The translations under genes and the position numbers were made by a program. The notes under the pieces were generated by a model. The model was not told the origin of the DNA. It made no database searches and was given only the letters and a program-made list of their open reading frames with translations. A stretch of 32,000 nucleotides of DNA from an uncultured delta proteobacterium (GTDB lineage: Bacteria; Desulfobacterota; Desulfobacteria; Desulfobacterales; JAFDCJ01), in assembly GCA_963765595.1 (NCBI GenBank), contig CAVXXE010000004.1, positions 45,902-77,901 on the forward strand. The letters run 5' to 3'. How positions within the stretch are numbered: position 1 is the stretch's first letter; each line of letters begins with the position of its first letter. Below, one piece after another: positions 3,226 through 29,203 of the stretch.

Positions 3226-3480
3226 ATGGCAACCAAAGACCAGTCAACAGCCGAAGGCCTACGCAAGAAGCGGACCTATGGCAAGTTTAGATGCCACAAT
3301 CCCAGCTGCATGGAAAGAATTGAGCCGGAGAAGGGCCATCAGACCGCCAAATGCCCGACCTGCGGCATGGAATACCGGGTGCACTGGGTCAACCCGACGC
3401 TGCCCCGTATTCGAGGACCAGTCTGGGATGTGAACCGGAAATTGGCGGAAGCAAAATTAAAAGAAAAGGGAGTACTGTGA
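3226..3480 (+). CDS. Small (84 aa) four-cysteine zinc-ribbon protein, function unknown, translationally coupled to AOR
   Basis: Strong SD AAAGGAGG 5 nt upstream of the ATG. CxxxxC ... CxxC arrangement (FRCHNPSC ... KCPTCG). The stop at 3478-3480 is 1 nt before the AOR ATG at 3482. Confidence 0.6.
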   Translation: MATKDQSTAEGLRKKRTYGKFRCHNPSCMERIEPEKGHQTAKCPTCGMEYRVHWVNPTLPRIRGPVWDVNRKLAEAKLKEKGVL

Positions 3481-3481
3481 T

Positions 3482-5422
3482 ATGGCGTTAAACAGGAAGA
3501 TAGCATATATCGATCTGACCACAGGTGATGTTCAGACAAAACCGATTCCGCTTGGGGTCCGAAAGAAGTTTTTGGGTGGCCGGGGTCTGGATGCATACCT
3601 GCTCTACAACCACACCAAGAAAGGTTGTGATCCACTGGGTCCTGACAATGCCCTTATTATCAGCGGCGGAATTCTGACGGCCACCTGTGCGTCGGCCACC
3701 TCAAGAACGCACGTTATGGCCAAATCGCCTTTGACCGGCATGTTGGGCAGCGCGAATATGGGTGGTTTTTTTGCACCTGAATTGGCCTGGGCCGGTTTTC
3801 ACCACCTGGTCATCAAAGGTAAAGCCAAAAATCCCTCTTATATCTATATCCACAACGGCGAGATCGAGATTCGCGAGGCCCATGACATCTGGGGTCAATC
3901 GGTGACCGACGCCCAGTGGGCGATCCGGCAGGAACTGGGGGATGAGGAAGTCAAAAGTTGCGTGTGTGGGCCGGCCGGAGAGAATCTGGTGCGGTTTGCC
4001 AACGTCATGACGGGGGTTAAAAATTCCGCCGGCCGAACGGGGATGGGATGTGTCATGGGATCCAAGAATCTCAAAGCCGTGGCGGCGCGCGGCACCATGG
4101 ACATCGAGATTGCCCGCCCGGTCGAAGCGCTGGAATACAACAAACGCTTTATCGAGCAGATTACCAGCGCCAAGGTGAGTCAAACCCAGGGCACCCTGGG
4201 AACGCCCTTTATCTGGGGTGCGACCAATTCCTGGGGCGGGGTCAGGACCCGCAATTTTCAATACAACCAGTGTGAATACTCTGATGATATCGAGCCGGAG
4301 CACATCGATGAGATTTGTGAAGAGACTATGGGGCCCTATCACATGACGGGCTGCTTCGGCTGCCAGGTGCATTGCCGGGCGCAGTATAAAATTCCGCACG
4401 GCCCCTTGGCGGGAAGATATGATGAAGGTCCGGAATACACCTCTTTGGGTGCTTTCGGCGCGGAAACGGACACCCCCCGGGCGCTGACGGTTCTCACCGG
4501 CAATCACCTGGTCGATCAGTTCGGAATGGACAATCTCGAAACCGGCAGCCTGATTTCCTGGGCCATGGAGTTATACGAGCTGGGCATTATCACTGACAAG
4601 CAGACCGATGGGCTGGATTTGAGCTGGGGCAATGACGAGGCGGTTCTTGAAATGGTCGAACGGATCGCTTACCGCAAAGGCTGGCTGGGAGACACCTTGG
4701 CCGATGGCGGGATTCCGGCTGCAAAAAAGATCGGTAAAAAATCTTTTGATTATCTCATCCAGGTCAAAGGGATGAGCAATCTGCATTCAGATGAAAGGGC
4801 GACGCCCGCCCTGGCACTCAATGTTGCCACGGCATCCAGGGGATCGGACCATTTGAGGAGTCGGCCGGCCATTGATCTTTATCATCTGCCGGAAGAGGTT
4901 CTCAGAAAGATTTACAGCAATCCGGTCTCCTATGACGGGCCGTTGAGCTCCGAGCATACGGAATACATCGGCAAACCGTGGCAGGTTTTCTGGCAGGAAA
5001 ACTTATATATGGGGGTCGATTGTCTGGGTATCTGTAAGTATCATACCGTATTTCTGGGTGTCACGCTGCCGACTTTCGAAGAATGGTCCAAGGTGCTGTA
5101 TTACAATACCGGCATCGAAATGACGCCCGAGGAGATCTGGCAGGCCTCACGACGGTGCAACATGATCGAAAGGCTCTTCAACTTAAGGGAGGGCTTGAAA
5201 CGAAACGATCTGGAAAAAGGCGATATGTTGAACCACCGCTATTTCGATGAGCCCTGCAGAAGGGGTGCGCTCGATGTCGTCGGTACCATGATCGATAAGA
5301 AAAAATTTATCAAGATGGTAGATGAATTATACGGACATCAGGGGCTGGATAAAAACGGTGTTCCTAAACCGGAGACCTTGCAAAGCCTGGGCCTGGAAAA
5401 CGAACCCTCCCATTTGCTATAA
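3482..5422 (+). CDS. aor: Aldehyde:ferredoxin oxidoreductase family protein (tungsten/molybdopterin, [4Fe-4S])
   Basis: 646 aa. AOR-type N-terminus (IAYIDLTTG...KKFLGGRGL). Cluster motif C-x2-C-x3-C (TGCFGCQVHCR) plus a distal Cys (GVDCLGICKY). Pterin-binding D-x-x-G-x-D/C motifs (DQFGMDN, DCLGIC). Confidence 0.9.
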   Translation: MALNRKIAYIDLTTGDVQTKPIPLGVRKKFLGGRGLDAYLLYNHTKKGCDPLGPDNALIISGGILTATCASATSRTHVMAKSPLTGMLGSANMGGFFAPELAWAGFHHLVIKGKAKNPSYIYIHNGEIEIREAHDIWGQSVTDAQWAIRQELGDEEVKSCVCGPAGENLVRFANVMTGVKNSAGRTGMGCVMGSKNLKAVAARGTMDIEIARPVEALEYNKRFIEQITSAKVSQTQGTLGTPFIWGATNSWGGVRTRNFQYNQCEYSDDIEPEHIDEICEETMGPYHMTGCFGCQVHCRAQYKIPHGPLAGRYDEGPEYTSLGAFGAETDTPRALTVLTGNHLVDQFGMDNLETGSLISWAMELYELGIITDKQTDGLDLSWGNDEAVLEMVERIAYRKGWLGDTLADGGIPAAKKIGKKSFDYLIQVKGMSNLHSDERATPALALNVATASRGSDHLRSRPAIDLYHLPEEVLRKIYSNPVSYDGPLSSEHTEYIGKPWQVFWQENLYMGVDCLGICKYHTVFLGVTLPTFEEWSKVLYYNTGIEMTPEEIWQASRRCNMIERLFNLREGLKRNDLEKGDMLNHRYFDEPCRRGALDVVGTMIDKKKFIKMVDELYGHQGLDKNGVPKPETLQSLGLENEPSHLL

Positions 5423-5485
5423 TTTGGTTGTTGGTTATTAGTTATTTGGTTTGCGGTTAATCGATATGCGGAACATTAACCATCA
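5423..5485. repeat. Degenerate tandem heptamer tract starting at the AOR stop codon
   Basis: Read in 7-nt units from 5423: tttggtt gttggtt attagtt atttggt ttgcggt taatcga tatgcgg aacatta accatca. Confidence 0.55.
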
Positions 5486-5555
5486 GAGGCTCAATCACCA
5501 ATGGGATGGATTCGAACTCTGGAATGTGAGCAGATTTCTAATAACAATAAACAAA

Positions 5556-5569
5556 TCCGCCGCGGCGGA
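5556..5569. promoter_or_regulatory. Perfect 14-nt palindrome TCCGCCG|CGGCGGA just upstream of the ferredoxin SD
   Basis: Two adjacent 7-nt units that are reverse complements of each other. They sit in the same 7-nt register as the tract that starts at 5423. SD TAGGAG follows at 5571-5576 and the ATG is at 5584. Confidence 0.4.
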
Positions 5570-5583
5570 TTAGGAGATAATAA

Positions 5584-6084
5584 ATGGCTAAGATTTTATA
5601 CATAGATCACGAGAAGTGCACCGGCTGCCGACTGTGTGAGCTTGTGTGCGCTGTTTCGCATGATGGGATATCCAATCCTGCCCGCAGCCGTATCCGGGTG
5701 TTGAAATGGGAGGCCGAAGGTCTTTATATCCCGATGACCTGTCAGCAATGTCAGGATGCACCCTGTCTGAATGTCTGCCCGGTCAAGGCCATTTCACAAG
5801 ATGAGCAGTTGGGCCGTGTAAGCGTTGACTACAATACCTGCATCGGCTGCCGTTCATGTGTCAGCGTATGCCCTTTCGGTGCCATGAATTATAATACCAC
5901 CGATCGGCGGGTCCTCAAGTGCGACGTCTGTGACGGCGATCCGCAGTGTGTCCGGTTCTGTGACGTCAAGGCCGTCGATTTTATTGAGGCCGGTGAAGTG
6001 GCCATAATAAAGAGCAGAAAAGCCGCCAAACGGGTATCGGAAGCAGGTAAAACGGCTGCTGATTTGGAGGCTCAGATGCGGTGA
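5584..6084 (+). CDS. Polyferredoxin, four [4Fe-4S]-type cysteine motifs; probable electron-transfer subunit of the AOR
   Basis: 166 aa with CTGCRLCELVC, CQQCQDAPCLNVCP, CIGCRSCVSVCP and CDVCDGDPQCVRFC. Directly downstream of the AOR on the same strand. Confidence 0.85.
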   Translation: MAKILYIDHEKCTGCRLCELVCAVSHDGISNPARSRIRVLKWEAEGLYIPMTCQQCQDAPCLNVCPVKAISQDEQLGRVSVDYNTCIGCRSCVSVCPFGAMNYNTTDRRVLKCDVCDGDPQCVRFCDVKAVDFIEAGEVAIIKSRKAAKRVSEAGKTAADLEAQMR

Positions 6085-6150: not shown

Positions 6151-6756
6151 CTAAACCGCCTTCAACGAGGAGTCATTTTTGGGGTGATTTTTCGAATCGT
6201 CTCCCCAGCGTCTGAAGAGATCGTGTTCGATGCCCATAAAGTCGAAAATCTTTCCGATGGTTTGATCGATGATATCATCGATGGTTTTGGGCATGTGGTA
6301 AAAGGAGGGGACCGGGGGAAGAATATGGGCGCCCATGTCAGCCGCCATGGTCATCAAACGCAAATGTCCCTTGTGCAGTGGGGTTTCCCTAACGACCAGC
6401 ACCAGTTTGCGCTTTTCTTTCAAGGTTACATCGGCGGCTCTCACCAAAAGATTTTCATTGTAGGAATTGGCAATTCCCGACAGCGTCTTGATGGTGCAGG
6501 GCACCACCACCATGCCTGCGGTCAAAAAGGAACCGCTGGCCAGGGATGCCGCCACATTTTTGTGGTCGTAAACATAATCGGCCATTGCCTTTACATCAGC
6601 AGGATCATAATCCGTTTCGATTTCAATATTCAGCTCACCGGATTTTGAAATAATCAAATGCGTTTCATAGTCTGTTTCTTTAAGTACACTCAGCAATCTG
6701 ACGCCATAAGTTGCCCCGCTGGCACCGGATATTCCGACGACGATTCGTTTTGGCAT
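6151..6756 (-). CDS. ubiX: Flavin prenyltransferase UbiX (prFMN synthase)
   Basis: 201 aa. N-terminus RIVVGISGASGATYGVRLL and the conserved body (VVPCTIKTLSGIANSY, LKEKRKLVLVVRETPL) are typical of UbiX/Pad1. Confidence 0.9.
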   Translation of the reverse strand: MPKRIVVGISGASGATYGVRLLSVLKETDYETHLIISKSGELNIEIETDYDPADVKAMADYVYDHKNVAASLASGSFLTAGMVVVPCTIKTLSGIANSYNENLLVRAADVTLKEKRKLVLVVRETPLHKGHLRLMTMAADMGAHILPPVPSFYHMPKTIDDIIDQTIGKIFDFMGIEHDLFRRWGDDSKNHPKNDSSLKAV

Positions 6757-6903
6757 GGGTTTCCTCTTGTTTATTTTATCTGGTTGATTAGAGCTTTCTT
6801 ATTTTGGGACATGGATTGCACAGATTGATATACACTTCTACTTATGATTCAAGACAAAGAGTTCCTAAAATCCGTGTGTGTCGGTACAAATCTGTGTCCT
6901 ATT

Positions 6904-8112
6904 CTAAAAGATTTTCAAAGCCGTTTTAGCCACTTCTGCAGCAAACTCGGGATCCTCCATGTTGGCGTCAACTTCTATTATTTCAACATCAGGGTTGAGT
7001 TTTTCCCGCAGCACCTGGGTAAATAAACGATCCTCTGCTGGATCATGGGTGTCGTTGCCGGGCAGATCCGCTGACGACCAGCCGTTCAGAGGGATTATGA
7101 CGGTTACCGGTCCCTTGGACTGGTTGAGTTTTTCTGCAAAGACCCCGGCCACCGCCTTGAGTTCCTCGGGCGACAGCCGGATCCAGGTCCGAAGTTTGTC
7201 CAGATCGAACTTTCGTCGTTCGTGATATTCGGGTTTATACCTGGATCGAGCCGGGGTCATGTGGTTTACACTGCAAGTCGAGATAAGTTGGGGCAGACCC
7301 AATTTGCCGGCGGTTTCCAGGCGATGGGGACCGGCATCCCGCATAAACCCGAAGAGGTGTTCACCAACACCTCCCGGGGCCAGGTCGATAACGCCTTGGA
7401 AGAATCCTTCGGCAATCATAGCCTCCATGGCGCGGTCGCCGATGCCGGATGCTGAAAATCCGATAATCTGGTAACCTTCCTGCTCCAGCGCCGTCCGTAC
7501 CGAGCTGGCGCATTTTTCACAGGGACCCAGCATGGTCAGAGCAATGGCTTTGCCTTTTTCGCCCTTCGGCGATGCGATATCATCGGCAGCCATGCCTGCC
7601 AAAGCGTGAGCTGCGCGATCCATGACATTTTTTAGCAGATCGGAAACGCCGGATATCTCGACTACCGAATGGAAAAGGGCAATATCCCCGGTTCCGATGT
7701 AGCGGGTGGAAAGACCGGGCAGGGCGGCCGTAGACGAGATCATCACTTTGGGAATCCCAAACGGCAGGGAGCGCATGATTTCGGTGCCCATCAATGAACC
7801 GGTGGATCCCCCCAGAGCGATAACACCGTCCAGCTTATCCTGGGCTAAGAGCTCAGCCGCAATCCGAGAGCCGCCGGCCATCATGATGTTGGTGATCCGG
7901 GTTCGATCGCGGGAACTTTGAATTTCTTCAAAACTGCCGCCGCCGGCCTCCGCCACGCGGTTCGCGGGAATATCGATGCCTGCGATATCGCTTCCCCGCC
8001 CGGAAATATCCATCAGAATCGGCACAAGTCCGATGGCACTCAATTTTTCCTTGAGATATAATGTCTCCAGCCCCTTGGTATCCAGGGTAGATATGACTAG
8101 AACGGTTTTCAT
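6904..8112 (-). CDS. UPF0261 / Tm-1-like ATP-binding domain protein (copy A)
   Basis: 402 aa. N-terminus VLVISTLDTKG. Conserved block GIPKVMISS...GDIALFHSV and second-half block SASGIGDRAMEAMIAEGFFQGVIDL are shared with ORFs 16563..17789 and 18001..19203. Confidence 0.8.
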   Translation of the reverse strand: MKTVLVISTLDTKGLETLYLKEKLSAIGLVPILMDISGRGSDIAGIDIPANRVAEAGGGSFEEIQSSRDRTRITNIMMAGGSRIAAELLAQDKLDGVIALGGSTGSLMGTEIMRSLPFGIPKVMISSTAALPGLSTRYIGTGDIALFHSVVEISGVSDLLKNVMDRAAHALAGMAADDIASPKGEKGKAIALTMLGPCEKCASSVRTALEQEGYQIIGFSASGIGDRAMEAMIAEGFFQGVIDLAPGGVGEHLFGFMRDAGPHRLETAGKLGLPQLISTCSVNHMTPARSRYKPEYHERRKFDLDKLRTWIRLSPEELKAVAGVFAEKLNQSKGPVTVIIPLNGWSSADLPGNDTHDPAEDRLFTQVLREKLNPDVEIIEVDANMEDPEFAAEVAKTALKIF

Positions 8113-8168
8113 AATAATTTATTCACTCATGAGCGCTATGTCCCATCAATTTATTCTGTACTTGAAAA

Positions 8169-8224
8169 GAAAATCCGAAATCCGAATTTCGAAACTCGAA
8201 ACAATAATCAAATTATAAATTCAA
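8169..8224. repeat. Degenerate tandem heptamer tract
   Basis: gaaaatc cgaaatc cgaattt cgaaact cgaaaca ataatca aattata aattcaa, in the spacer between the ligase stop and the UPF0261-A start. Confidence 0.6.
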
Positions 8225-8432
8225 ATGACCTAAACAAAAGATGCATCTTCTATGTAGGGCCGGCCACCCTGCCGGCCTCACTGCGGAAAGCAGTCACGGT
8301 GGGCTGCTTTACTCCTTTCCGCCGGCAGACACTGTTGGTTCTTCCACGGTTTTTTCCGGAAACCGTGAAAAAATCCAGTTCATCCTGTTGATCCTGTCCA
8401 ATAATAAACTAAAAAGAATCCTTTCCTTAAAT

Positions 8433-10088
8433 TCAGGTTTCTTTTGCCACTTTTTCCGCGATATTCTTTTTCAAGGTCTCTTTATTCACTTTTCCCGAGT
8501 CACCGACGGCGGGGAATTCGTCCACGACTTCGAGGCGTTCGGGAAGTTTATACATGGCCAGTTTCTTGCCTTTGAGAAATTCAACCATTTCTTCAAAGCT
8601 GAAATCCTGCCCGCCTTTGGCAATTACGTAAGCGCAGGTCCGCTCACCCATTTCGCGGTCCGGATAGCCCACGACGGCCACAGAGGCTACCTTGGGATGG
8701 TCATTGAGCAGACCTTCGATTTCCGCCGGATATATATTTTGACCGCCGCGAATGATCATGTCCTTGGCCCGGCCCAGGATCCACAGGCATTCCTGGTCGA
8801 ATTTAACGATATCGCCGGTGGTGGTCCAGCCTGCGGGATCGAAAACAGTGGCGGTTAATTCTTCGTCACGATAGTATCCGGCCGGTGCATGGGGGCCTCT
8901 GAAATACAGGATTCCGGGTTCGCCATCGGGTACCGGTTCGCCGGTATCCTTGTCCAGCAGACGCACCTTGTTGCCCGGCAGCATCCGCCCGACGGTCCGG
9001 CGGCGAAGATCTTTAGAATCTTCCACCCGGCAGCCCGAAACCGATCCCATATCCTGGGTTCCCAGATCACTGGTGATATTGGCACCGAAGGCCGTTTCGG
9101 CTTCTTCGGCGATCTGGGGCGAAAGATAGCCGCCGGCGGAACGGATAAAGCGCAAGGAACTTAAATCGTACTTGGAGGCGTCGACTTCGAGCATTCTGAC
9201 CAAATGGGTCGGCACCACACCGATGGCAGTGGCTTTCTCCTTTTCGATCAGGGCTAAAGCGGCCTCCGGCTCAAATTCCTCCAGCATGACCGTCTTGGCG
9301 CCGGCCAGGGGAGCGGCAAAATAGGTGAGGGTACCGGCGGCACCACCGGCATGGGGTGCAATCGCCATGGTGGTATCTTTGTGGGTAAGACCCCAGATAT
9401 CCACGCGGCCTTTTGAGGTACAGACGCGGGGGGCCGTGGGCCATTCCACCAGTTTGGGTATGCCGGTGGTTCCCGATGTCGTTGTCAGCAAGGCCACATC
9501 GGAAATTGGGTCCAATCGGCGCGCATTGAGGGTATCTTCGTCAATGGGCTTATCAGCGGCAGCCTGCGCTAATTGGGTTAGCGAATAGGTTCCCTCCGGT
9601 GCGCCTTCCGGAACTTCGTCGTCGAAAAGAAAAATCTTTTCCAAATGCGGAAATTTTTTCTGAAGTTCCCGGTACATTTCAAGATAATTGAAGTTGCGAT
9701 ATTCATTTAGAATCACAACGGCGGCGGCCTCGGTTCTTTCCACCATGTAAGTCAGCTCTCTTTCCCGCAAATACGGATAGACGGTCAGAGAAATAAGCCC
9801 GGCCCTTTCAGCAGCGATGCGTGCCAGGAACCCGTACACACTGTTGGGTGATTGAATGATGATTCGCGACGATTTAGGTATACCCATTTCAACCCATGTA
9901 TAGGCAATGGCATCCACCAGTTTTTTAGCCTCGGCCCAGGTGACGCGGTACTTGGAATCCACCAGGGCCTCCTGGTCACCCAATTCCCGGGCGTTTCTTT
10001 CCCAGAAATCATAAAAAAGCTCCCGGGTCCAGTATCCTTCATTAAAAAATTCGTCCACCATTTCTTTTTTATAGCGAATCGGTTTCAA
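8433..10088 (-). CDS. AMP-forming aryl/acyl-CoA ligase (adenylate-forming superfamily; EntE/AliA-like N-terminus)
   Basis: 551 aa. Motifs TTTSGTTGIPKLV, GDIVKFDQECLWILGRAKDMIIRGGQNIYPAEIE and a C-terminal SGKVNK lysine. TTG start at 10086-10088 with SD AAGGAG about 7 nt upstream. Confidence 0.85.
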   Translation of the reverse strand: MKPIRYKKEMVDEFFNEGYWTRELFYDFWERNARELGDQEALVDSKYRVTWAEAKKLVDAIAYTWVEMGIPKSSRIIIQSPNSVYGFLARIAAERAGLISLTVYPYLRERELTYMVERTEAAAVVILNEYRNFNYLEMYRELQKKFPHLEKIFLFDDEVPEGAPEGTYSLTQLAQAAADKPIDEDTLNARRLDPISDVALLTTTSGTTGIPKLVEWPTAPRVCTSKGRVDIWGLTHKDTTMAIAPHAGGAAGTLTYFAAPLAGAKTVMLEEFEPEAALALIEKEKATAIGVVPTHLVRMLEVDASKYDLSSLRFIRSAGGYLSPQIAEEAETAFGANITSDLGTQDMGSVSGCRVEDSKDLRRRTVGRMLPGNKVRLLDKDTGEPVPDGEPGILYFRGPHAPAGYYRDEELTATVFDPAGWTTTGDIVKFDQECLWILGRAKDMIIRGGQNIYPAEIEGLLNDHPKVASVAVVGYPDREMGERTCAYVIAKGGQDFSFEEMVEFLKGKKLAMYKLPERLEVVDEFPAVGDSGKVNKETLKKNIAEKVAKET

Positions 10089-10322: not shown

Positions 10323-11744
10323 TCAGCAGACAACTTTATCCAATCCCAGTTCCGACCAGCGGCCCTTGACTCTTTCAACGATTTCAGGATCCAATTCGAT
10401 GGGGATCGGTTTATCTTTCCAGTCATAGGGGATGGTGGCGTCCAACAGCAGCCTGCCGGTGATTTCTCTAGCGTTGATGGGTAGGGATGGATCCAGCGGT
10501 GTGGATCGTCCGCGTTTGATGACCTGAGAGCGATTGGGCTGAAAGCGGAAGCTCAAGGCGTACATGACCCGGGGGATATCCCAGGGATCGATGTCTTCAT
10601 CGACCACGATCACGGTTTTAAGCCCATAGGCACCCATCTCGGTAGAGATGGCGGCGGTCAGGACCTGGTCCGCGTGTCCGGGATACATCTGCTTAATTGA
10701 AATAATGGCCAGAAAACGGCCGGAGCCTTCCGGTGGGCAGTAAACGGCTTTTAATCCGGGAATTTTCATGGCCAGCAGCTGCTGCCACAGGGTGGCGCCG
10801 TAGGAGAGTGCCATGGTCATATGGGTATCGGTGACAGCCCGGCCGACGGTGGTTCCCCACAAAATCGGGTTGTTTCGGTGGGTAACGCATTTGACATCGA
10901 TAAAATTACGCGGATCGGTACCGACGCCGGAATAATAGCCGGTATACTCGCCAAACGGTCCTTCTTCCATAAATTTGTCGGCATCGACTTCGCCTTCGAT
11001 GACGATCTCTGCATGGGCCGGTATGGGCAGATCGACGGATTCTCCCTTGACCACTTCAACGGCCTCGCCGCGCAGTGCTCCGGCGACATCGTATTCCGAA
11101 GTAAAGGCGGAAATGCGGGCGGCTCCCAGGATAAAGAGCAGCGGGTCGCAACCGATCACCGAAGCCACCGGCATGGGTTTGCCCATGGCCTGGTATTTTT
11201 TCAGCATGATGTCGGCGTGTTTGCCCTTGATGAACTGGGTGCCCATCTTGTCCTTGCCAAGTAGCTGGCTGCGGTAGGTTCCCAAGTTAACCCAGCCGGT
11301 CTCGGGATCTTTGCTGATGATAAAATGGGCGGTGCCGATAAAACGTCCGCCATCCAGGGGATACCACTGGGGAACGGGGAATTTATAAAGATCGATATCA
11401 TCACCGCTTAAAATATTTTCTTTGCAGGGTGCCGCTGAGGCCGCCACTTCCTTGGGCGGTATCAGGTTCTCACCCAGTTTTGCCCATTCAACATAAAGAT
11501 CGACAAGGGTGGATTCGAGGGGCAGACCCATGATCAAAGCCAGCCTTTCGGTGGTGGTGCAAACGCTGGTGATCACCGGTGTATCATAATCTTTGACGTT
11601 TTCGAACAGCAGGGCCGGGCCGCTTTGTTCTTCATTTAATTTGGCGATATGCGACAGCTCCAGGTTCCAGTCGACTTCCGCCGTAATTCGTTTGCACAGC
11701 CCCACTTCTTCACCTTTGGCAATGAAATCTCTCATGTTTTTCAT
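10323..11744 (-). CDS. UbiD-family (de)carboxylase (prFMN-dependent family; resembles the large subunits of phenylphosphate-carboxylase-type enzymes)
   Basis: 473 aa. N-terminus MRDFIAKGEEVGLCKRITAEVDWNLELSHIAKLNEEQSGPALLFENVKDYDTPV follows the UbiD pattern (LRDF...L.RI...VD..LE...I......GPALLFEN). Length and body are consistent with the family. ubiX lies in the same gene string. Confidence 0.88.
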   Translation of the reverse strand: MKNMRDFIAKGEEVGLCKRITAEVDWNLELSHIAKLNEEQSGPALLFENVKDYDTPVITSVCTTTERLALIMGLPLESTLVDLYVEWAKLGENLIPPKEVAASAAPCKENILSGDDIDLYKFPVPQWYPLDGGRFIGTAHFIISKDPETGWVNLGTYRSQLLGKDKMGTQFIKGKHADIMLKKYQAMGKPMPVASVIGCDPLLFILGAARISAFTSEYDVAGALRGEAVEVVKGESVDLPIPAHAEIVIEGEVDADKFMEEGPFGEYTGYYSGVGTDPRNFIDVKCVTHRNNPILWGTTVGRAVTDTHMTMALSYGATLWQQLLAMKIPGLKAVYCPPEGSGRFLAIISIKQMYPGHADQVLTAAISTEMGAYGLKTVIVVDEDIDPWDIPRVMYALSFRFQPNRSQVIKRGRSTPLDPSLPINAREITGRLLLDATIPYDWKDKPIPIELDPEIVERVKGRWSELGLDKVVC

Positions 11745-12027: not shown

Positions 12028-13098
12028 CTAGCTCGGAAGCTTGATCCGCTTCATCGCCTGTTCCATCAACAACTGATAACCGGTCTTTTTGCCGAGTACC
12101 GATTCCTTCTTGCGCTGGCTCCAGACGGTTTCCGGGCGTGCCTGAACAATGAAAATATTTTCCGGAAACGAAAAATCCTTGTCGATGGCCCACTCGATAT
12201 CCATGGCGCGGCCGTAGTGGGTTTCTATGGTTTTGGCTGTTTTGACCAGTTCTTTTATTTCCTGGTCCTCAAGACAGCAGGTGCACTGCATGTCTGCGGC
12301 TACATCGGCGTCGACGGTTTCTCCTTTTTCGACGTCGAAGACACACTCGATGTGTTTGGTGGAGATGGTCCGCTCATTGATCTCCCCCATGACCTTGTCG
12401 ACGACGAATTTGTCCGGGTTGACGGAGCCGGACACGACCGTTTCTCCCAAACCCCAGCTTCCTTCAAGCACGACTTTGGAAATATCCCCGTCGGTGGGAT
12501 TGAGGGTGAACATCACCCCCGCGGCCTTTGAGTTCACCATTTTCTGAACACCGACACTGATCAGTACCTTTTCATGGGGGAAGTCATTTTTAACCCGGTA
12601 GCTGATGGCCCGCGGCGTATATAGGCTGGCCCAACATTTTCGCACACTTTCATTGACCCGCTCAGCACTCGTTATCCAAAGGTAAGTGTCCTGCTGTCCG
12701 GCAAAACTGGCCGTAGGCAGATCTTCCGCGGTCGCGCTGGATCTTACCGCTACCGGAAGGGCATCAACCTCGCATTTTTTGCAAAGCAGAGAATATCCGT
12801 CCGCGATCGCCTTTTGGACATCATCAGGGATGACCGCCGTCCTGATCATTTCCTGGATTTTTTCGGCGACCTGGTTAAGCGCATCGATATTATCGGGATC
12901 CAGATCCGCCAGGAGGCTGAAAATTGTATTATTTATCCCGGCTTTCTCCATAAATACCGCATAACTGCTGGTGGTGACGGCAAATCCTGGAGGAACCCGA
13001 ATACCGGCATTGATCAACTCTCCCAGACTGGCATTTTTACCGCCAACCACCGGCAGCAAACTTTTATTCAGTTTGCGAAAATTCAGGATTAAATCCAT
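12028..13098 (-). CDS. PEP/pyruvate-binding (ATP-grasp, PPDK_N-type) protein; phenylphosphate-synthase small (about 40 kDa) subunit-like
   Basis: VVGGKNASLGELI and VAVRSSATAEDLPTASFAGQQDTYL match the nucleotide-binding N-terminal domain of PEP synthase. I place the start at the internal ATG 13096-13098 (MDLILNFRKL...) because SD AGGAGA lies 7 nt upstream. The longer track ORF to 13194 adds a basic, non-homologous extension. Confidence 0.8.
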   Translation of the reverse strand: MDLILNFRKLNKSLLPVVGGKNASLGELINAGIRVPPGFAVTTSSYAVFMEKAGINNTIFSLLADLDPDNIDALNQVAEKIQEMIRTAVIPDDVQKAIADGYSLLCKKCEVDALPVAVRSSATAEDLPTASFAGQQDTYLWITSAERVNESVRKCWASLYTPRAISYRVKNDFPHEKVLISVGVQKMVNSKAAGVMFTLNPTDGDISKVVLEGSWGLGETVVSGSVNPDKFVVDKVMGEINERTISTKHIECVFDVEKGETVDADVAADMQCTCCLEDQEIKELVKTAKTIETHYGRAMDIEWAIDKDFSFPENIFIVQARPETVWSQRKKESVLGKKTGYQLLMEQAMKRIKLPS

Positions 13099-13146
13099 TA
13101 TTATTCTCCTGCAGAATCTCCGAAATCTTTTATATTGCTTCCAAGA

Positions 13147-13170
13147 CCCCCTCCCCGGTCGGGGAAGGGG
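13147..13170 (-). other. GC-rich intercistronic hairpin (CCCCTCCCC-ggtc-GGGGAAGGGG)
   Basis: Read directly from the sequence. It lies in the 125-nt spacer between the two synthase-like genes. Confidence 0.4.
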
Positions 13171-13223
13171 TGCGAAGGTTGCAGTATTACTCATCTCTAC
13201 AAGGGTACTCGAACCGGTGCTGT

Positions 13224-15086
13224 TTAACTCGCTCTTTCGACAATCGTGACAACACCGGTATCACCATCGACTTTGACAATATCACCGGTTTTAATAGCGG
13301 CGGTGGCGATACCGCAGCCGGTTACCGAAGGCACACCATATTCACGGCAGACAATCGCCGCATGGCTGGTCAGCCCGCCGATGTCGGTTACCGCGGCCTT
13401 GATATTGGTGAAGACCGGGGCCCAGGATGGATTGGTCGACGGGCAAACCAAGACCTCACCCGGCTGCAGGTCGACAATGTCCTTGAGCCGCTTGAGAACC
13501 CGCGCCGGACCTTCAGCCACGCCGGCCGAAGAGGCAAAACCCTTGATTTCAGACATGTCCGCACCTGCCGTCGTGTCGACCCCTTTGAGCCATTCCTTGA
13601 CCTTGTCGGTGGTGATCCCCCACAGCATGATGGTGAACGGCTCGGCCACTTCTTCGGGTGGCACGCCCAGGGCCGGTGTCGGATTCCATTCGACGGCCGC
13701 CTCGAGGATCTTTCTGCGTTTCGCGGCCTTGGATTTATAGTATTCATCCCTGACCGGTATATCCACGCCCAGAGCCCAGGCGGTTGCAACTTCAGTCAGA
13801 AGCTGCGGAATTTCGTAACGGTTGAACATAAATATGTCGTCGACATCATCAATCATTCCGTTGTCAACCAGGACCGATCCAATTTGCCTGATTTTTTTAT
13901 ACCAAATGGTATGGAACCAATGCTCTACCCAGAAGAGATGATCCTCGGCATAGCGGTAGATGGTTCTGATGGTGTTATAGGCATCATCAAAGGCTTTGCG
14001 GTCGTCGTCGGTTTGTATCATCTTGCGGTACTCGGCGACAATTTCATTGCGTTCCTTCTCGATCCCATCCAGGGAGCGCTCGATGGTTTCGCCTTTTTCA
14101 AGCCTTTCGACATAACCTTTGATATAGCTATAGGGAATGTCCAAATCAGTCAGCCAGCTGCCTTCGTGATGGTACCAGCCGCTGCCACAGGATACGTAAA
14201 ACCAGGGGTCACTTGACTTTTCATATTCGGCCAGCCAGTTTTTGCCGGCTTCTGATTGTTGAAGTTCAGCAATCTTCTCGGCGGCGGATTTTGTGCTCTT
14301 GAGAATGCTGCCCACGCCATCCGCCGAAACTGCCAGCCGGGCCAGGCGGCAAAGCTCTTCTTCGGGGCGGAACATGGAAACATAGGCGCCGGCCACCATC
14401 TTGCCGATGGCACTTTCGCTGATCCCGGGAAAAAGCTTACGGGACACATCGCCAAACATCAGATAGGCCAGATAGGTCAAGTTGAGCATTTCGAAATGAT
14501 ATTGCCAACCTTTGAACATCTGGTTGACCAGCTTGTCGAAGGACTCGATCAGGTCGTAACCTTCATAATACCCCGTGGGGGCCGGAAAAACCTTGTCATC
14601 GGGGACGTATTTAGGCAATTCCGCGGGGATCTGAACGGCCCTCATTTCTTCCCCCAGGGCCTTGAATTTCGTCAGCCATTTGTCCCACAATTCATCGTAG
14701 TGTTCAAAGACATAAAATACCCGTTTTTCAAAATGGGCGGCTTTTTCAGCGATAATTTCATCGGGCGGCGGGGCAATCGCGCAGATATACAGGTAGCAGC
14801 CCACCAACCGCTGGGCAATTCCCTGGGCCGGAGGGATGCAAAATACGCGGGTCGTATACTGTGACAATGAAATCTGCCAGGCTTCCTGAAAGATTAAATC
14901 CAGCGGCGGCAGTGGTTCGGGTGCGTGGATTTTGTCCGCATACCAGAATTGGGCCTTTTCCCAATCGGCTCGATCCTGTGAGAATAGGTGATGGGTGGGA
15001 TACATTTCCTCCCAGCCTTCAAGCTCCGGGGGGACTTTAAACTCGTGAGGGTCCGGAAATCTGCCTTCATTATCTGCCATTTTCAT
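13224..15086 (-). CDS. PEP-utilising enzyme, mobile phosphohistidine-domain protein; phenylphosphate-synthase large (about 70 kDa) subunit-like
   Basis: 620 aa. The C-terminal swivel-domain motif DIGGLTSHAAIVCREYGVPSVTG carries the catalytic-type His (about residue 575 by my count). The large N-terminal region is not PEP-synthase-like. The true start may be the second ATG at 15080, which has AGGAGA 6 nt upstream. Confidence 0.8.
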   Translation of the reverse strand: MKMADNEGRFPDPHEFKVPPELEGWEEMYPTHHLFSQDRADWEKAQFWYADKIHAPEPLPPLDLIFQEAWQISLSQYTTRVFCIPPAQGIAQRLVGCYLYICAIAPPPDEIIAEKAAHFEKRVFYVFEHYDELWDKWLTKFKALGEEMRAVQIPAELPKYVPDDKVFPAPTGYYEGYDLIESFDKLVNQMFKGWQYHFEMLNLTYLAYLMFGDVSRKLFPGISESAIGKMVAGAYVSMFRPEEELCRLARLAVSADGVGSILKSTKSAAEKIAELQQSEAGKNWLAEYEKSSDPWFYVSCGSGWYHHEGSWLTDLDIPYSYIKGYVERLEKGETIERSLDGIEKERNEIVAEYRKMIQTDDDRKAFDDAYNTIRTIYRYAEDHLFWVEHWFHTIWYKKIRQIGSVLVDNGMIDDVDDIFMFNRYEIPQLLTEVATAWALGVDIPVRDEYYKSKAAKRRKILEAAVEWNPTPALGVPPEEVAEPFTIMLWGITTDKVKEWLKGVDTTAGADMSEIKGFASSAGVAEGPARVLKRLKDIVDLQPGEVLVCPSTNPSWAPVFTNIKAAVTDIGGLTSHAAIVCREYGVPSVTGCGIATAAIKTGDIVKVDGDTGVVTIVERAS

Positions 15087-15371: not shown

Positions 15372-16331
15372 GTGCTGAACTTTAACCAACTGCGGGTGTT
15401 TTACCACGCTGCAAAAAATTTGAATTTTACCATGGCGGCCAATGAGCTCTTTATTACCCAGCCGGCGGTGACATTTCAGATGAAGGCTTTTGAAGAGTTC
15501 TGCAATTTGAAACTTTTTAAAAAGAGGGCACGGCGGTTGTTTTTAACTGATGAGGGCCGGGCGCTTCTTGAATACGCTGAAAAAATTTTTAAATATGAAA
15601 AAGAAATCGAAAATGTCATCGAAGACATGCGGGAACTCAAACGAGGTGTCCTCAGTCTGGGTACCACCAAAGCCTATGCCCGCTATTTCATGCCGCTGAT
15701 GCTAAGCACCTTTCACCAAAAATTTCCCAAGATAAAAATCCAACTGAATGAAGGCAGTTCCCTGGACATGACCTATAGTCTGCTTGATTTTAAAATCGAG
15801 GTGGCCGTGGTCGCCAAAGCCGGGGAGCTGCCCGAAGTTGATTTTTTTCCTTTCAGCAAGGAAGAAATGGCGATCATCGTGGCTCCAGACCATCATTTTA
15901 CAAAGAAAAGGTCCATCGCTTTTAAAGACCTCGCCAATGAGCCATTCATCATGAAGGAGCAAGGCTCGGGAACCCGCAAATTGGTTGAAGAATTATTTTC
16001 AGATGCAGACTGCGCACCGGATATTCTGATGGAAACCAGCAACACCGAATTTATCAAGCAGCTGGTCCAGCGTGGTGAAGGAATTTCTTTTTTAGTGAAA
16101 GAAGCGGTGGCGGCTGAGATTGAGGAGAAAAAATTGGCCCAGGTGGCGCTGAAAGGCCGCCCACTTTTTTTAGACGTCAGCATTGCCTATCTTAAAGGTC
16201 AGGTGCTTTCACCGCCTGCCAGGGCATTCGTGGACACTCTCAGAAATTTGAAAACCGATGATGAGGAAATGCACCCCATGGGAATCGGGTTGATGATGGC
16301 CAAAATTCTTGCCCAACGGAAAACCAGATGA
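15372..16331 (+). CDS. LysR-family transcriptional regulator
   Basis: 319 aa. N-terminal HTH LNFNQLRVFYHAAKNLNFTMAANELFITQPAVTFQMKAFEE followed by a LysR substrate-binding domain. GTG start. Confidence 0.85.
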   Translation: MLNFNQLRVFYHAAKNLNFTMAANELFITQPAVTFQMKAFEEFCNLKLFKKRARRLFLTDEGRALLEYAEKIFKYEKEIENVIEDMRELKRGVLSLGTTKAYARYFMPLMLSTFHQKFPKIKIQLNEGSSLDMTYSLLDFKIEVAVVAKAGELPEVDFFPFSKEEMAIIVAPDHHFTKKRSIAFKDLANEPFIMKEQGSGTRKLVEELFSDADCAPDILMETSNTEFIKQLVQRGEGISFLVKEAVAAEIEEKKLAQVALKGRPLFLDVSIAYLKGQVLSPPARAFVDTLRNLKTDDEEMHPMGIGLMMAKILAQRKTR

Positions 16332-16562: not shown

Positions 16563-17789
16563 TCACTTTGCGTGTTGTATTAGCTTTTGCTGAGCCTCGA
16601 TGATGGCCCGGCTAAACATGGGATCGTTGATATGACAGGGCAGGGTCCTCAGGTTGGCTTGGTTATCTAATATTTTCTCCAGCATTTTAACAAATAGTGG
16701 CGGGGCAGCGGGATCATGCAAAGGGCCGTCTGGGTGGTCGAAAGCCGAGAACCCTTTCATCGGCACCAGGATTTTCCAGGGTCCCTGCGCCTGATTGCAT
16801 AATTCGCCTATGATTTTGGCCAGCGCTTCTATCTCGTTCTGTTGGGTACGCACGACGGTTATGGCGGCATTGTGGACATGGTAAGGGCGGCCGGGGAAAC
16901 TGCGTTCGACGGTCTCCAGAGGGCCGGTGACCAGAAAATCGATGTTGCCGGGGATAATAATAGTGGGAATACCCCGCTTCAGGGCGACGGTCCCGCGCGC
17001 CGGCCCGGCATCGTAGTCTCCGCCAAAATGATGATCCGCCAATTCGTGCAACGACAGGTCTACCAGGGCAGCTACCTTTTCCTGGGCCAGCATTTCTTCC
17101 ATGGCCTTCCCGCCGGCCCCCACCGTATGGAAGATGATCACTTCATTGCCTTTTTCTTCCAGGGTTTGGCGAATGTTTTGGACGCACGCTTCGGTGGTGC
17201 CCAGGGTGGATATAAACACCAGTGGTTTTTGTTTTGAATCATCCTTGCCGGCGGTGTGTCGCAACATGCCGGCCATTGCCAGCGCACCGTTGCGAAGAAC
17301 TTTTTTGGTGACCCGGTTAAGGCCCGTCAGATCGCAAACCGAGTGCAGCATGAAAATGTCTTTGGTGCCGACAAATGCGCGGGTGTCGCGGGATGCCATG
17401 GTGGAAATCATCACCTTGGGAACGCCGATGGCAAGGTTGCGCATGACTGCCGTGCCCAGGGTAGTGCCCATGGAACCGCCCAGTCCGATAACGCCCTGGA
17501 TTTCACCCTGATGATATAACTCCCGGGCGCATTTGACAGCCCCGGTGGTCATGATTTTCAAGGCCCTGCCTTCGTGGCCGATGTTTTGAACCTCTTTCAG
17601 CGGTTTGCCGCCGGCTTGAGCGACCTTTTCCCGTGTGATGTCTACCGGTACCGGACTTGCGCCTCGGATGCCGGCATCCATAATTTTAACCTGAATCCCC
17701 TCTTTATTAATACAATCGGCGATATACAGGGCTTCCTGGCCTTTGGTGTCCATGGTAGCGACTAATAAAGCGACAGAGCGATGTGGCAA
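16563..17789 (-). CDS. UPF0261 / Tm-1-like ATP-binding domain protein (copy B)
   Basis: 408 aa. LLVATMDTKG, GVPKVMISTMASRDTRAFVGTKDIFMLHSV and HTVGAGGKAMEEMLAQEKVAALVDLSLHELADHHFGG. TTG start at 17787-17789 with SD GGAGG 5 nt upstream. Confidence 0.8.
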   Translation of the reverse strand: MPHRSVALLVATMDTKGQEALYIADCINKEGIQVKIMDAGIRGASPVPVDITREKVAQAGGKPLKEVQNIGHEGRALKIMTTGAVKCARELYHQGEIQGVIGLGGSMGTTLGTAVMRNLAIGVPKVMISTMASRDTRAFVGTKDIFMLHSVCDLTGLNRVTKKVLRNGALAMAGMLRHTAGKDDSKQKPLVFISTLGTTEACVQNIRQTLEEKGNEVIIFHTVGAGGKAMEEMLAQEKVAALVDLSLHELADHHFGGDYDAGPARGTVALKRGIPTIIIPGNIDFLVTGPLETVERSFPGRPYHVHNAAITVVRTQQNEIEALAKIIGELCNQAQGPWKILVPMKGFSAFDHPDGPLHDPAAPPLFVKMLEKILDNQANLRTLPCHINDPMFSRAIIEAQQKLIQHAK

Positions 17790-18000: not shown

Positions 18001-19203
18001 TTATTTATGTATCATTGCATCCATCAAAGTGGCCGCAATCTCGCCAAAGGCGCTGTCGTTGATGTGCCGATCCACCTCTTGAATTTCGATTTGAGGATCG
18101 AGAACCTCTTTCAGCCTCCCGGTAAAAATTAAGTTCATTTCAGGATCATATAAAGGTCCGCCTTGCCGGTCGGCCTCGGACCAGCCTCTGCCAGGAATCA
18201 GCACTTTTATGTTGCCTGCATCGCGGTTCAGTTTTTCCGCCAGTTGATTTGCCAGACAGGTGGTTTCTTCAATGTTGAGCCGGATTGCGGAGCGGAAGTC
18301 GTAGAAAAAGATTTTTCGATTTTTATATTCGTCCGGAATGTTCTGTCGGGTAAATTCCAGAACCGCACAATCCAGCCCTCCCGGAACGACCAGCCGGGGG
18401 ATCGATCTGCCGGGAACCGGTTCGTACCGTTGCGGTCCGATGGCACCGCAATAGCCATCCAGCAGATGATCCGCCAGCTCGTGGGTGGCCAGGTCCAGAA
18501 TGCCGTCAAAATACCCTTCCGCCGCCAGTTCTTCCATGGCCATGCCGCCGGTGCCGTTGGCATGGAAGGCAACAACTTCATACCCCAGCCTTTCCAGGGC
18601 CTTGCGGGTGGCTTCAGCCCCGGCAGTGATAAAACCGAAAAAGGGCAGGGCGATGCGTTTTTTTACTTCAGCGGGTTGCCATTGACTTCGAACCATGCCG
18701 CATATGGCGGCGGCGCCTTTATCCAGGATGTTGCCTGAAATGCTGTTGACACCCAGCAGATCCGCGACGCTGTGGATCATGGTAATGTCTTTAGTGGAGA
18801 CGATATCGGCCATGTTGCGTGAGGCCACGGTGGAGATCATCACCTTGGGAACACCCAAGGGCAGTTCGCGCATAATGGTGGCGCAGATATGGGTTCCCGT
18901 ACCGCCGCCGGCTGAAATTATGCCGCTGATTTTGCCGTCCCCATGCAGTTTATTAATTTGTACTTTGGCCTCGTGCAGCATGGCATTTATTATATTATCT
19001 CTTCCCTCAGGTATGTCCGACGCGTTTTCCGTGACATTTTGAAACAAATCTAGATCCACCGGCACCGGTGATGGCGCCCGGGTTCCGACGTTAATCGTCA
19101 GCGTCCGTAATCCCCGTTGCGCTATCTGCTCTTTTAAAAACATGTGTTCTTCTGCTTTAGAATCGAAGGTTCCAACGACAGCGATGGCAGAATCAATTTT
19201 CAT
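18001..19203 (-). CDS. UPF0261 / Tm-1-like ATP-binding domain protein (copy C)
   Basis: 400 aa. IAVVGTFDSKA, GVPKVMISTVASRNMADIVSTKDITMIHSV and HANGTGGMAMEELAAEGYFDGILDLATHELADHLLDG. Confidence 0.8.
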   Translation of the reverse strand: MKIDSAIAVVGTFDSKAEEHMFLKEQIAQRGLRTLTINVGTRAPSPVPVDLDLFQNVTENASDIPEGRDNIINAMLHEAKVQINKLHGDGKISGIISAGGGTGTHICATIMRELPLGVPKVMISTVASRNMADIVSTKDITMIHSVADLLGVNSISGNILDKGAAAICGMVRSQWQPAEVKKRIALPFFGFITAGAEATRKALERLGYEVVAFHANGTGGMAMEELAAEGYFDGILDLATHELADHLLDGYCGAIGPQRYEPVPGRSIPRLVVPGGLDCAVLEFTRQNIPDEYKNRKIFFYDFRSAIRLNIEETTCLANQLAEKLNRDAGNIKVLIPGRGWSEADRQGGPLYDPEMNLIFTGRLKEVLDPQIEIQEVDRHINDSAFGEIAATLMDAMIHK

Positions 19204-28893: not shown

Positions 28894-28923
28894 TTGACAT
28901 TTGCGTACAGAATCAAGTACATT
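28894..28923 (+). promoter_or_regulatory. yefM-yoeB promoter with overlapping operator half-sites
   Basis: TTGACA (28894-28899), 18-nt spacer, TACATT (28918-28923). Two GTAC cores at 28905 and 28917 are exactly 12 bp apart. Confidence 0.5.
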
Positions 28924-28948
28924 TCCTTTAATCATAAAGGAGGAATAT

Positions 28949-29203
28949 ATGGAATCAATAAATTACACAACGTTTCGAAAAGATTTGGCAAAAACCCTTG
29001 ATCGAGTCAACGATGATCATTGTCCTATCCTTATTACACGCCAGAACGGACGAACAGCCGTGCTTCTGTCACTTGATGATTTTAAATCATACGAAGAAAC
29101 AGCATATCTCATGAAGAGCCCCAAAAACGCTGAACGACTCAATGCTGCAATTACTGAATTAGAAAAAGGTAAAGGCATTGAGAGGGAGATTATTGAGGAA
29201 TGA
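28949..29203 (+). CDS. yefM: YefM/Phd-family antitoxin
   Basis: Start at MESINYTTFRKDLAKTLDRVNDDHCPILITRQNG... with SD AAAGGAGG 6 nt upstream. ATGA overlap with yoeB. Confidence 0.85.
   Translation: MESINYTTFRKDLAKTLDRVNDDHCPILITRQNGRTAVLLSLDDFKSYEETAYLMKSPKNAERLNAAITELEKGKGIEREIIEE

Follow-up and report, generated by a model that had tools for sequence, protein, structure and literature searches.

The locus described here raises the question of what a protein of the UPF0261 family contributes to a gene cluster apparently equipped for the activation and carboxylation of phenol. The gene concerned, which we call UPF1, is an open reading frame (ORF) at 6904..8112 on the minus strand of a 32,000-nt stretch of contig CAVXXE010000004.1 from an uncultured delta proteobacterium; "the window" always means this whole stretch. 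Our tentative answer is that UPF1 may be the phosphoryl-transfer partner of a phenol carboxylation module built around a single UbiD-family enzyme, in which it would handle the phosphoryl group of the aryl phosphate. The evidence comes from the family, fold and remodelled pocket of the protein, the conservation of its operon, its mutual exclusion with the other subunits of phenylphosphate carboxylase (PpcA, PpcC and PpcD), and the phenol induction of its counterpart in Desulfatiglans anilini.

UPF1 possesses both UPF0261 domains, PF06792 (E 2.4e-49, 168 bits) and PF23189 (E 2.2e-65, 220 bits; cut-offs 27), and scores above the cut-off of the NCBIfam subfamily PRK02399.1-2 (NF002674; 362 vs 335 bits). 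The ORF map, Pfam and NCBIfam confirm what the initial annotation had recorded, a 402-aa UPF0261 ORF in the same orientation between a ligase gene and ubiX and 147 nt from the latter (spacer 6757-6903, all three genes on the minus strand); two further UPF0261 paralogues in the window, UPF2 (16563-17789) and UPF3 (18001-19203), had gone unmentioned there. The start codon is consistent with orthologues beginning M-K-T-[IV]-L. Since more than 120 UPF1-related protein clusters at 85-90% identity, nearly all of 403 aa, are found in metagenome bins of the Desulfobacterales and Thermodesulfobacteriota, UPF1 is a real, conserved gene.

It had also been stated that no bacterial reaction is assigned to the family and that a role in this cluster would be its first functional context. 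Both statements are outdated: work published in 2025 showed that MarK (Saro_1862, "multiple aromatic kinase") of Novosphingobium aromaticivorans, a homodimeric UPF0261 protein (PDB 9MPY), is a phenol kinase that depends on ATP (Hall et al., J Biol Chem 2025, PMC12624787). The substrates of MarK are acetovanillone and further phenols that bear a ketone or aldehyde in the para position, and ATP is converted to ADP; D14, T15 and K16 form its putative ATP site, and the phenol is held by H348 together with three residues whose conservation among homologues exceeds 90%, G195, H219 and H304 (PMC12624787). UPF1 aligns with MarK over 396 residues (188 bits, ~30% identity). The ATP loop is kept as D11-T12-K13, and G195 is kept as G196; across 28 aligned orthologues K13 does not vary, and D11 and T12 are conserved to 90% or more. 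At the phenol contacts UPF1 has S220 for H219, L304 for H304 and Ala for H348, and it thus lacks the full set of phenol-binding residues of MarK. Of 41 members of the UPF1 clade, 31 carry Ser, 8 His and 2 Thr at the H219 position, and the H304 position is Leu with 98% conservation.

Four residues of the N-domain (D11, G102, K122 and D143) are conserved across all UPF0261 clades compared. The positions specific to the UPF1 clade are an L-P insertion at 131-132, D152E, N157S, a G to D change at 226 (motif G-D-R), H247G, E248G, D251E, D283N, K301 and L304; in more than 40 sequences from many families these are 90-100% conserved within the clade, though near-invariantly different in the other clades. 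Relative to MarK there is also a 2-residue deletion at the F283/I285 loop. The loss of histidine and acidic residues from the pocket (H247G, E248G, D283N, H304L) would be in keeping with a ligand that is anionic, for example an aryl phosphate, a hydroxybenzoate or a CoA ester. Of the two paralogues in the window, UPF2 keeps D-T-K, G-T-T, H219 and H304 and has F in place of H348; UPF3 has D-S-K, keeps H219 and carries Y at the H304 position.

An AlphaFold2 model of UPF1 built on an alignment of 30 sequences has a pLDDT of 93.7 and a pTM of 0.89. Searched with Foldseek, it matched the N-terminal region of tomato Tm-1 best (PDB 3WRV-3WRY; 3WRX, E 3e-35, TM 0.85), which likewise has an ATP-binding N-subdomain, followed by MarK (9MPY, E 1.7e-34, TM 0.66); apart from these two, no chain found by Foldseek matched both domains. 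Tm-1 differs in its fused C-terminal TIM-barrel (PF09370), which is neither fused nor adjacent to UPF1, and it works through ATP-bridged binding to a viral replicase, not through catalysis (PMC12624787). In a quick maximum likelihood tree (IQ-TREE, SH-aLRT support) of 79 cluster-borne UPF0261 proteins the UPF1 orthologues are monophyletic (support 100). A second group, here called UPFx, is their sister, and the joint superclade (support 100) is separate from the MarK-like clade that includes UPF2, from the UPF3-type clade and from a clade of PpsB-adjacent proteins. Judged by alignment and tree, UPF1 is a member of the UPF0261 family, yet no orthologue of MarK. The sole longer homologue found, P0121 (788 aa, metagenomic), is a UPF0261 protein of 45% identity fused to an FAD-dependent oxidoreductase.

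The genes in and around the cluster are:

6904..8112, minus strand: UPF1, UPF0261 protein of 402 aa with an ATG start, clade "GDR" of the MarK/Tm-1 family
6151..6756, minus strand: UbiX flavin prenyltransferase (NCBIfam NF004685, 263 bits; TIGR00421, 248 bits)
8433..10088, minus strand: aryl-acid adenylating/CoA ligase of the DhbE/EntE type (Pfam AMP-binding and AMP-binding_C)
10323..11744, minus strand: single UbiD-family carboxylase of the PpcB type, phenylphosphate carboxylase beta (TIGR02724, 513 bits, cut-off 469)
12028..13194, minus strand: PpsB-like ATP-grasp subunit of a phenylphosphate-synthase-type dikinase (Pfam PPDK_N, E 1.3e-119)
13224..15086, minus strand: PpsA-like phosphohistidine swivel-domain subunit (NCBIfam PRK08296.1-5, 856 bits; Pfam PEP-utilizers)
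15372..16331, plus strand: LysR-type regulator, divergent from the operon (Pfam HTH_1 and LysR_substrate)
16563..17789, minus strand: UPF2, MarK-like UPF0261 paralogue (340 bits to MarK 9MPY)
18001..19203, minus strand: UPF3, UPF0261 paralogue of a separate clade (Pfam), closer to Tm-1 (177 bits)
3226..6084, plus strand: zinc-ribbon mini-protein, tungsten-type aldehyde:ferredoxin oxidoreductase (AOR) and polyferredoxin (Pfam AFOR_N/AFOR_C, Fer4)

The nearest solved relatives of the ligase are 2,3-dihydroxybenzoate-AMP and salicylate-AMP ligases (254-226 bits). In the window it is separated from UPF1 by 320 nt (8113-8432), a spacer that carries heptamer-like repeats (TTTCGAG/TTTCGAA/ATTCGGA and similar). 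A scan of the operon for promoters and terminators gave a count of sites not above that of shuffled sequence.

Conservation of this arrangement was examined in two samples. Within 401 genomes of the phylum, flanks of up to 10 kb per side were mapped around 40 matches; one of these (L069) was an outlier with 42% identity and no ligase and was left out, so that the orthologue group comprises 39 loci in 39 genomes at 47-74% identity, below which identity falls sharply to 44% or less. From ~185,000 species genomes searched, 530 relatives were obtained, and the top 80 of them (63-87% identity) were mapped; all 80 are bins of Desulfobacterales, Desulfatiglandales, Syntrophobacteraceae, Desulfobacula and Desulfotignum. 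The order [PpsA PpsB] UbiD ligase UPF1 is kept in the 39 loci, representing 15 families of the phylum, and in the 80 further species-level genomes. The ligase lies upstream of UPF1 in 38 of the 38 visible cases of the 39-locus set, two of them with an intervening 198-aa ORF, and upstream in 67 of the 69 visible cases among the best 80 of the 530 relatives. In most orthologous loci the two genes overlap or are 0-40 nt apart, a gap of -4 to +6 nt being common, and a divergent LysR regulator precedes the operon.

The downstream side of UPF1 is more variable. In the 39-locus set it is occupied by ubiX (sometimes after a PAC_bac gene), by Hcr-like genes (4-hydroxybenzoyl-CoA reductase; Mo, FAD and 2Fe-2S subunits), by a zinc-ribbon-AOR-ferredoxin block, by a CBS (PpsC-like) gene or by another UPF0261 gene. 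Among the best 80 relatives the order is LysR / PpsA PpsB UbiD Lig UPF1 [HD] [PAC] [CBS] UbiX [Hcr or AOR], and UbiX follows UPF1 in 73 of 75 visible loci, directly in 30 and past one to three small genes in 43. Distant orthologues differ among themselves in where ubiX lies; in families f11, f20, f65 and f68 it is located elsewhere with the PAC_bac gene beside it, and UPF1 is still next to the ligase. All orthologues examined with enough flank are inside UbiD clusters. The UPFx genes directly follow UbiD, in clusters that lack a DhbE-type ligase. A minimal module, LysR / UbiD-UPF0261-UbiX, occurs at L158-L160 (G186, G302 and G274) with no PpsAB within the fetched flanks, and is followed by a 612-644-aa protein of weak similarity to an octaheme cytochrome.

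We then defined a PpcB locus as one scoring above the TIGR02724 cut-off and classified every such locus in the 401 genomes, 76 loci in 71 genomes. A UPF0261 gene lies no more than 10 kb from PpcB in 48 of the 76, against a random expectation of ~0.2% for a 20-kb segment (from ~160 UPF0261 genes per ~1.4 Gb), and the co-occurrence of UPF0261 with ubiX/ubiD, proposed earlier as a check, is thus strongly positive. Forty-six loci have a gene of the UPF1/UPFx clade beside UbiD or the ligase, and PpcA, PpcC or PpcD in none of them; 24 are of the Thauera type, all with PpcA/C/D and none with a member of the clade. The others are four contig-end fragments of the UPF1/UPFx type, one lone UbiD and one locus too short to call. 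Thauera-type loci show the order PpcB, one or two KdsC-like PpcD (TIGR02726, 103-133 bits), PpcA (TIGR02723, 639 bits), PpcC (TIGR02725, 42-46 bits), a third UbiD and UbiX, and a MarK-like or PpsB-adjacent UPF0261 copy is present in four of the 24. Both classes occur within families f11, f21, f31, f56 and f67, so the split between them is not simply taxonomic. Searches by tblastn for PpcA, PpcC and PpcD gave no match in any of 120 UPF1 loci.

The host genome (6.35 Mb, 82% complete) agrees with this pattern. In a profile search of it, one ubiX and one ubiD were found, both inside the window cluster, and neither PpcA, PpcC or a true PpcD nor any match to PF09370 was found in the genome at that completeness; the best PpcD-like match, on another contig, reaches 147 bits against a cut-off of 282. 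Five UPF0261 genes are present.

A cluster of the same order, UbiD-ligase-UPF0261-UbiX, is known from D. anilini, the likeness being one of gene order, family annotation and length (403 aa). Its phe cluster comprises UbiD/ppc-beta (02059), a DhbE-type ligase (02058), a UPF0261 protein (02057) and UbiX (02056); 02058 is annotated as "2,3-dihydroxybenzoate-AMP ligase" and its function was called unknown by the authors (PMC6114531, PMC7500099). The window shows the phe-type arrangement PpsA-PpsB-UbiD(PpcB)-ligase-UPF0261-UbiX under a divergent LysR, an order that recurs in L031-L150. Unlike the window, D. anilini has Hcr-like genes between ubiX and ppsAB.

H567DRAFT_02057 is listed as "Uncharacterized protein, UPF0261 family" (403 aa) in the supplementary proteome table of PMC7500099. 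In replicate 1 its area reaches 2.5e9 with phenol, compared with 5.3e7 for benzoate, 5.0e7 for aniline and 0 for 4-aminobenzoate, and phenol replicates 2 and 3 give 4.2e9 and 6.7e8, the other substrates giving at most 3.0e8 (PMC7500099 supplement); this amounts to an induction by phenol of about 10-50 fold. The same phenol sample has areas of 3.9e7 for UbiX and 1.8e10 for UbiD (PMC7500099 supplement), so that 02057 is ~65 times as abundant as UbiX and no more than one order of magnitude from the catabolic enzymes. UbiX was detected in phenol-grown cells only (PMC7500099). A second UPF0261 protein, 03869, is encoded between Pas-beta (03868) and an acyl-CoA synthetase (03870) in the aniline cluster (PMC7500099), with areas of 5.4e9 on 4-aminobenzoate and 6.5e8 on aniline and none detected on benzoate or phenol (PMC7500099 supplement). 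Neither 02057 nor 03869 appears in the main text of PMC6114531 or PMC7500099; they are found in the proteome tables only. The authors could not demonstrate phenylphosphate carboxylase activity in extracts of D. anilini and suspected a different mechanism, and they regarded the cost of phenol activation, up to ~4 ATP equivalents, as unexplained for a sulfate reducer (PMC6114531).

Two described systems are useful for comparison. UPF1 and MarK share the two-domain UPF0261 fold, stand alone without a TIM-barrel partner, and belong to aromatic catabolic operons where phosphorylation of a phenol precedes its carboxylation. They differ in that MarK, from aerobes, is paired with the biotin-dependent carboxylase AcvCDE and the phosphatase AcvF, whereas the partner of UPF1 is a UbiD that depends on prenylated FMN (prFMN) in a strict anaerobe; the UPF1 operon additionally holds a PpsAB-type dikinase, and UPF1 falls in a separate clade with its L131-P132 insertion and replaced phenol-contacting histidines. 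Domains of AcvCDE/HpeCBA (the biotin-dependent carboxylase) and of AcvF/HpeD (the phosphatase) are present in none of the genes of the window. The PpcABCD enzyme of Thauera aromatica (Schuhle and Fuchs 2004, as cited in PMC6114531) catalyses the same step with a PpcB-type UbiD, with PpsAB acting before it and UbiX encoded alongside. The difference is that the cluster in the window, like the genome, is without PpcA, PpcC and true PpcD, and of the four carboxylase subunits, sulfate reducers, iron reducers and syntrophs encode only one (PMC6114531).

The explanation that we favour, tentatively and short of calling it probable, is that UPF1 is the phosphoryl-transfer partner of the single-UbiD module. 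The chemistry of the family, transfer of phosphoryl between a nucleotide and an aromatic oxygen, fits the need of a module that handles phenylphosphate. UPF1 would retain the ATP/ADP-binding N-terminal domain of the MarK/Tm-1 phosphotransferase fold with its substrate loops rewritten, and it would be a fixed, substrate-induced part of a PpsA-PpsB-UbiD-ligase-UPF1-...-UbiX operon in strictly anaerobic Desulfobacterota. There it would remove the phosphoryl group of the aryl phosphate, or hand it to a nucleotide, while carboxylation and CoA ligation take place or immediately afterwards, and so might stand in for the PpcD phosphatase and for the contribution of PpcA and PpcC to the Thauera-type enzyme. 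From these data we infer the substrate of UPF1, the direction of transfer and any physical association with UbiD or the ligase; as far as the sequence goes, phosphate may be removed at carboxylation, removed after ligation, or added by a forward kinase. A role in phosphotransfer chemistry, also suggested in the initial annotation, lies near this best-supported reading.

Several points weigh against our proposal. In vitro, refolded UbiD proteins of D. anilini needed no UPF0261 protein to carboxylate phenylphosphoamidate to 4-aminobenzoate (PMC7500099). As the two types of cluster differ in many genes, a pair of operon lineages, rather than functional replacement, could lie behind the mutual exclusion with PpcA/C/D, and the surveyed genomes are related, so the counts overstate independence and describe a pattern, not a significance test. 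The gene order would suit a partner of the carboxylase, a partner of the ligase or another step of the pathway alike. UPF1 may catalyse no phosphoryl transfer at all, because residues invariant in other clades are altered in it, and for the UPF1 clade as a whole the role is a prediction from sequence and context.

The precedent of MarK may also be read forwards, with UPF1 as an ATP-dependent kinase of a pathway phenol, be it phenol, 4-hydroxybenzoate or 4-hydroxybenzoyl-CoA, which we think unlikely. Acting on phenol itself it would provide a cheaper, ADP-forming route beside PpsAB; acting on 4-hydroxybenzoate or on the 4-hydroxybenzoyl-CoA made by the ligase it might, for example, create a better leaving group for reductive dehydroxylation. 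MarK, the sole characterised UPF0261 member, is such a kinase with a preference for para-carbonyl phenols, and 4-hydroxybenzoyl-CoA has a para carbonyl; moreover, the ATP loop of UPF1 is intact, the ligase is its constant and often translationally coupled upstream neighbour, Hcr-like Mo-enzyme genes or the AOR-ferredoxin block are often downstream, and UbiD-UPFx-UbiX clusters without PpsAB are known (L158-L160). However, the phenol-binding residues that are >90% conserved in MarK homologues are replaced (H219 by S, H304 by L), a second phenol kinase would be redundant with PpsAB in the operon, the mutual exclusion with PpcA/C/D is not predicted, and the sister clade UPFx adjoins UbiD with no ligase between. 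The dehydroxylation variant has to contend with the many Hcr-like sets in the genome, and Thauera Hcr works without a phosphorylated substrate. Run in the opposite direction, the reaction would recover ATP: the phosphate installed by PpsAB would be kept through carboxylation and DhbE-type CoA ligation, and UPF1 would then pass it from the para-acyl aryl phosphate to ADP. We hold this version of a reverse aryl-phosphate kinase to be quite improbable, although it would explain the gene order (phosphorylate, carboxylate, ligate, UPF1, dehydroxylate), the absence of a PpcD phosphatase, the second, PaaK-type ligase elsewhere in the genome and the undetected classical phenylphosphate carboxylase activity in extracts. 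If true, it would lower the unexplained ~4 ATP-equivalent cost of phenol activation in sulfate reducers.

Proximity to ubiX led to the suggestion in the initial annotation that UPF1 supplies the cofactor pathway, phosphorylating prenol to dimethylallyl monophosphate (DMAP) or otherwise assisting prFMN synthesis or maturation for UbiX and UbiD. In its favour are the 73 of 75 close loci in which UbiX follows UPF1 directly or past one to three small genes, the UbiD-UPF0261-UbiX trio as smallest conserved unit, the exchange of aromatic-stacking histidines for aliphatic or small residues, and the frequency of HD-phosphohydrolase and PAC_bac genes between UPF1 and ubiX. The linkage nevertheless follows the ligase, with which UPF1 remains where ubiX has been relocated (f11, f20, f65, f68); the 24 Thauera-type clusters of the phylum have ubiX and no member of the UPF1 clade; and among 14 control genomes UbiX occurs in 9-11 and UPF0261 in one. 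Nor is the premise that UbiX needs DMAP general, since several UbiX enzymes use dimethylallyl diphosphate (DMAPP): F181 of the DMAP-specific Pseudomonas UbiX blocks the beta-phosphate, and in DMAPP users Gln or His takes its place (Marshall et al. 2019, PMC6541611), though this residue (PaUbiX-181) does not by itself decide between DMAP and DMAPP use (PMC6541611). The UbiX of the window has Gln at the equivalent position, and of 113 cluster UbiX proteins 90 carry Gln, 23 His and none Phe, the split being similar with or without UPF0261. The abundances in D. anilini point the same way, 02057 being ~65 times UbiX and 03869 abundant in aniline-grown cells, where UbiX was undetected. Cofactor supply is thus disfavoured, and we rate it as very unlikely. 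A non-catalytic function, with UPF1 as an ATP-binding assembly factor, chaperone or regulator of UbiD or the ligase by analogy with Tm-1, seems to us highly doubtful as well. Tm-1 does act by binding (PMC12624787), the AlphaFold2 model is nearer to ATP-analogue-bound Tm-1 (TM 0.85) than to MarK (TM 0.66), and positions invariant in other clades are changed (D152E, N157S, H247G, E248G, D283N). The 90-100% conservation of the clade-specific residues in >40 sequences is, on the other hand, what would be expected of a defined ligand site, the abundance of the counterpart lies no more than a factor of ten from that of the catabolic enzymes, and no result of the present tests favours binding alone. 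We retain, with the reservations given, a phosphoryl-transfer partnership with the single UbiD.

Several accompanying genes deserve mention. A 129-aa PAC_bac gene (PF21758, "bacterial proteasome assembling chaperone-like") stands just before ubiX at L052:5224-5613 and in 24 other loci (e.g. L077, L079 and L085) and is absent from the window; because it relocates together with ubiX, its product is a candidate UbiX/UbiD accessory. An HD-domain phosphohydrolase gene (~206 aa) comes right after the UPF0261 gene in family f41 and in no fewer than 14 close loci, the gap between the two being -28 to +44 nt (examples are L057:12375-12995, L075, L110, L127 and L131); the genome of the window yielded no homologue. 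The zinc-ribbon/AOR/polyferredoxin block is convergent with ubiX in the window. Elsewhere a same-strand block of zinc-ribbon (zr84), AOR and ferredoxin genes comes after UPF1 (L041, L043-L045, L047 and L048) or after ubiX (L127, L132, L137, L139 and L143). The neighbouring AOR was considered as a BamB-like ring reductase and rejected as such, being nearer to true aldehyde:ferredoxin oxidoreductases (304 vs 203 bits). We also rejected the idea that UPF1 replaces a missing 4-hydroxybenzoyl-CoA reductase: many Hcr-alpha-like genes are present in the genome (best 827 bits), and Hcr-like genes follow UPF1 in many loci.

The genome contains, on a contig other than that of the window (G000:C48:18724-28971), a PaaK-type aryl-CoA ligase near Hcr-like genes; the ligase is 70% identical to one sandwiched by two UPF0261 genes in L155, and the Hcr-alpha-like frame carries one in-frame TAA stop. 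Because there is this second, PaaK-type ligase, as there is in D. anilini, the ligase and UPF1 may, as a pair, have a special intermediate as their substrate. Outside the UbiD context, locus L178 has a UPF0261 gene with a MarK-like pocket (G000:C95:18269-19525, plus strand), whose neighbours encode a creatininase-family protein, an FAD-linked oxidase, a CCG-domain protein and a fumarate-reductase-like flavoprotein, and a truncated UPF0261 gene of 280 aa (G000:C95:25956-26798, minus strand) that adjoins a ComB-like 2-phosphosulfolactate phosphatase. At the left end of the window two ORFs that overlap, 18-851 and 670-1488, cover the C- and N-terminal parts of Pfam Sulfatase and make up one split sulfatase (18-1488, minus strand); the likely cause is a frameshift in a pseudogene or an error of sequencing. 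The catabolic region is followed downstream by an IS21-type pair (26295-28528, minus strand; Mu-transposase-like IstA and IstB), a Phd/YefM antitoxin gene (28901-29203, plus strand) and an IS200-like transposase fragment (30980-31294, minus strand).

By its sequence and surroundings UPF1 represents a divergent clade within a kinase family that has only just been characterised, placed in a catabolic context that is both new and conserved. In the searchable literature we found no assigned function for the clade and nothing linking Tm-1-like proteins with phenylphosphate, and two 2026 papers on anaerobic benzene degradation do not mention the UPF0261 family. The question of the source of DMAP is narrowed, one candidate being disfavoured. 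The textbook pathway of anaerobic phenol degradation is derived from Thauera, and the clusters of sulfate reducers, iron reducers and syntrophs differ from it in their single carboxylase subunit. For these, UPF1 is a testable candidate for an overlooked phosphate-handling part, present exactly where the other carboxylase subunits are absent. If the proposal is true, it would give the large UPF0261 family, the first activity of which was reported in 2025, a second and divergent functional context.

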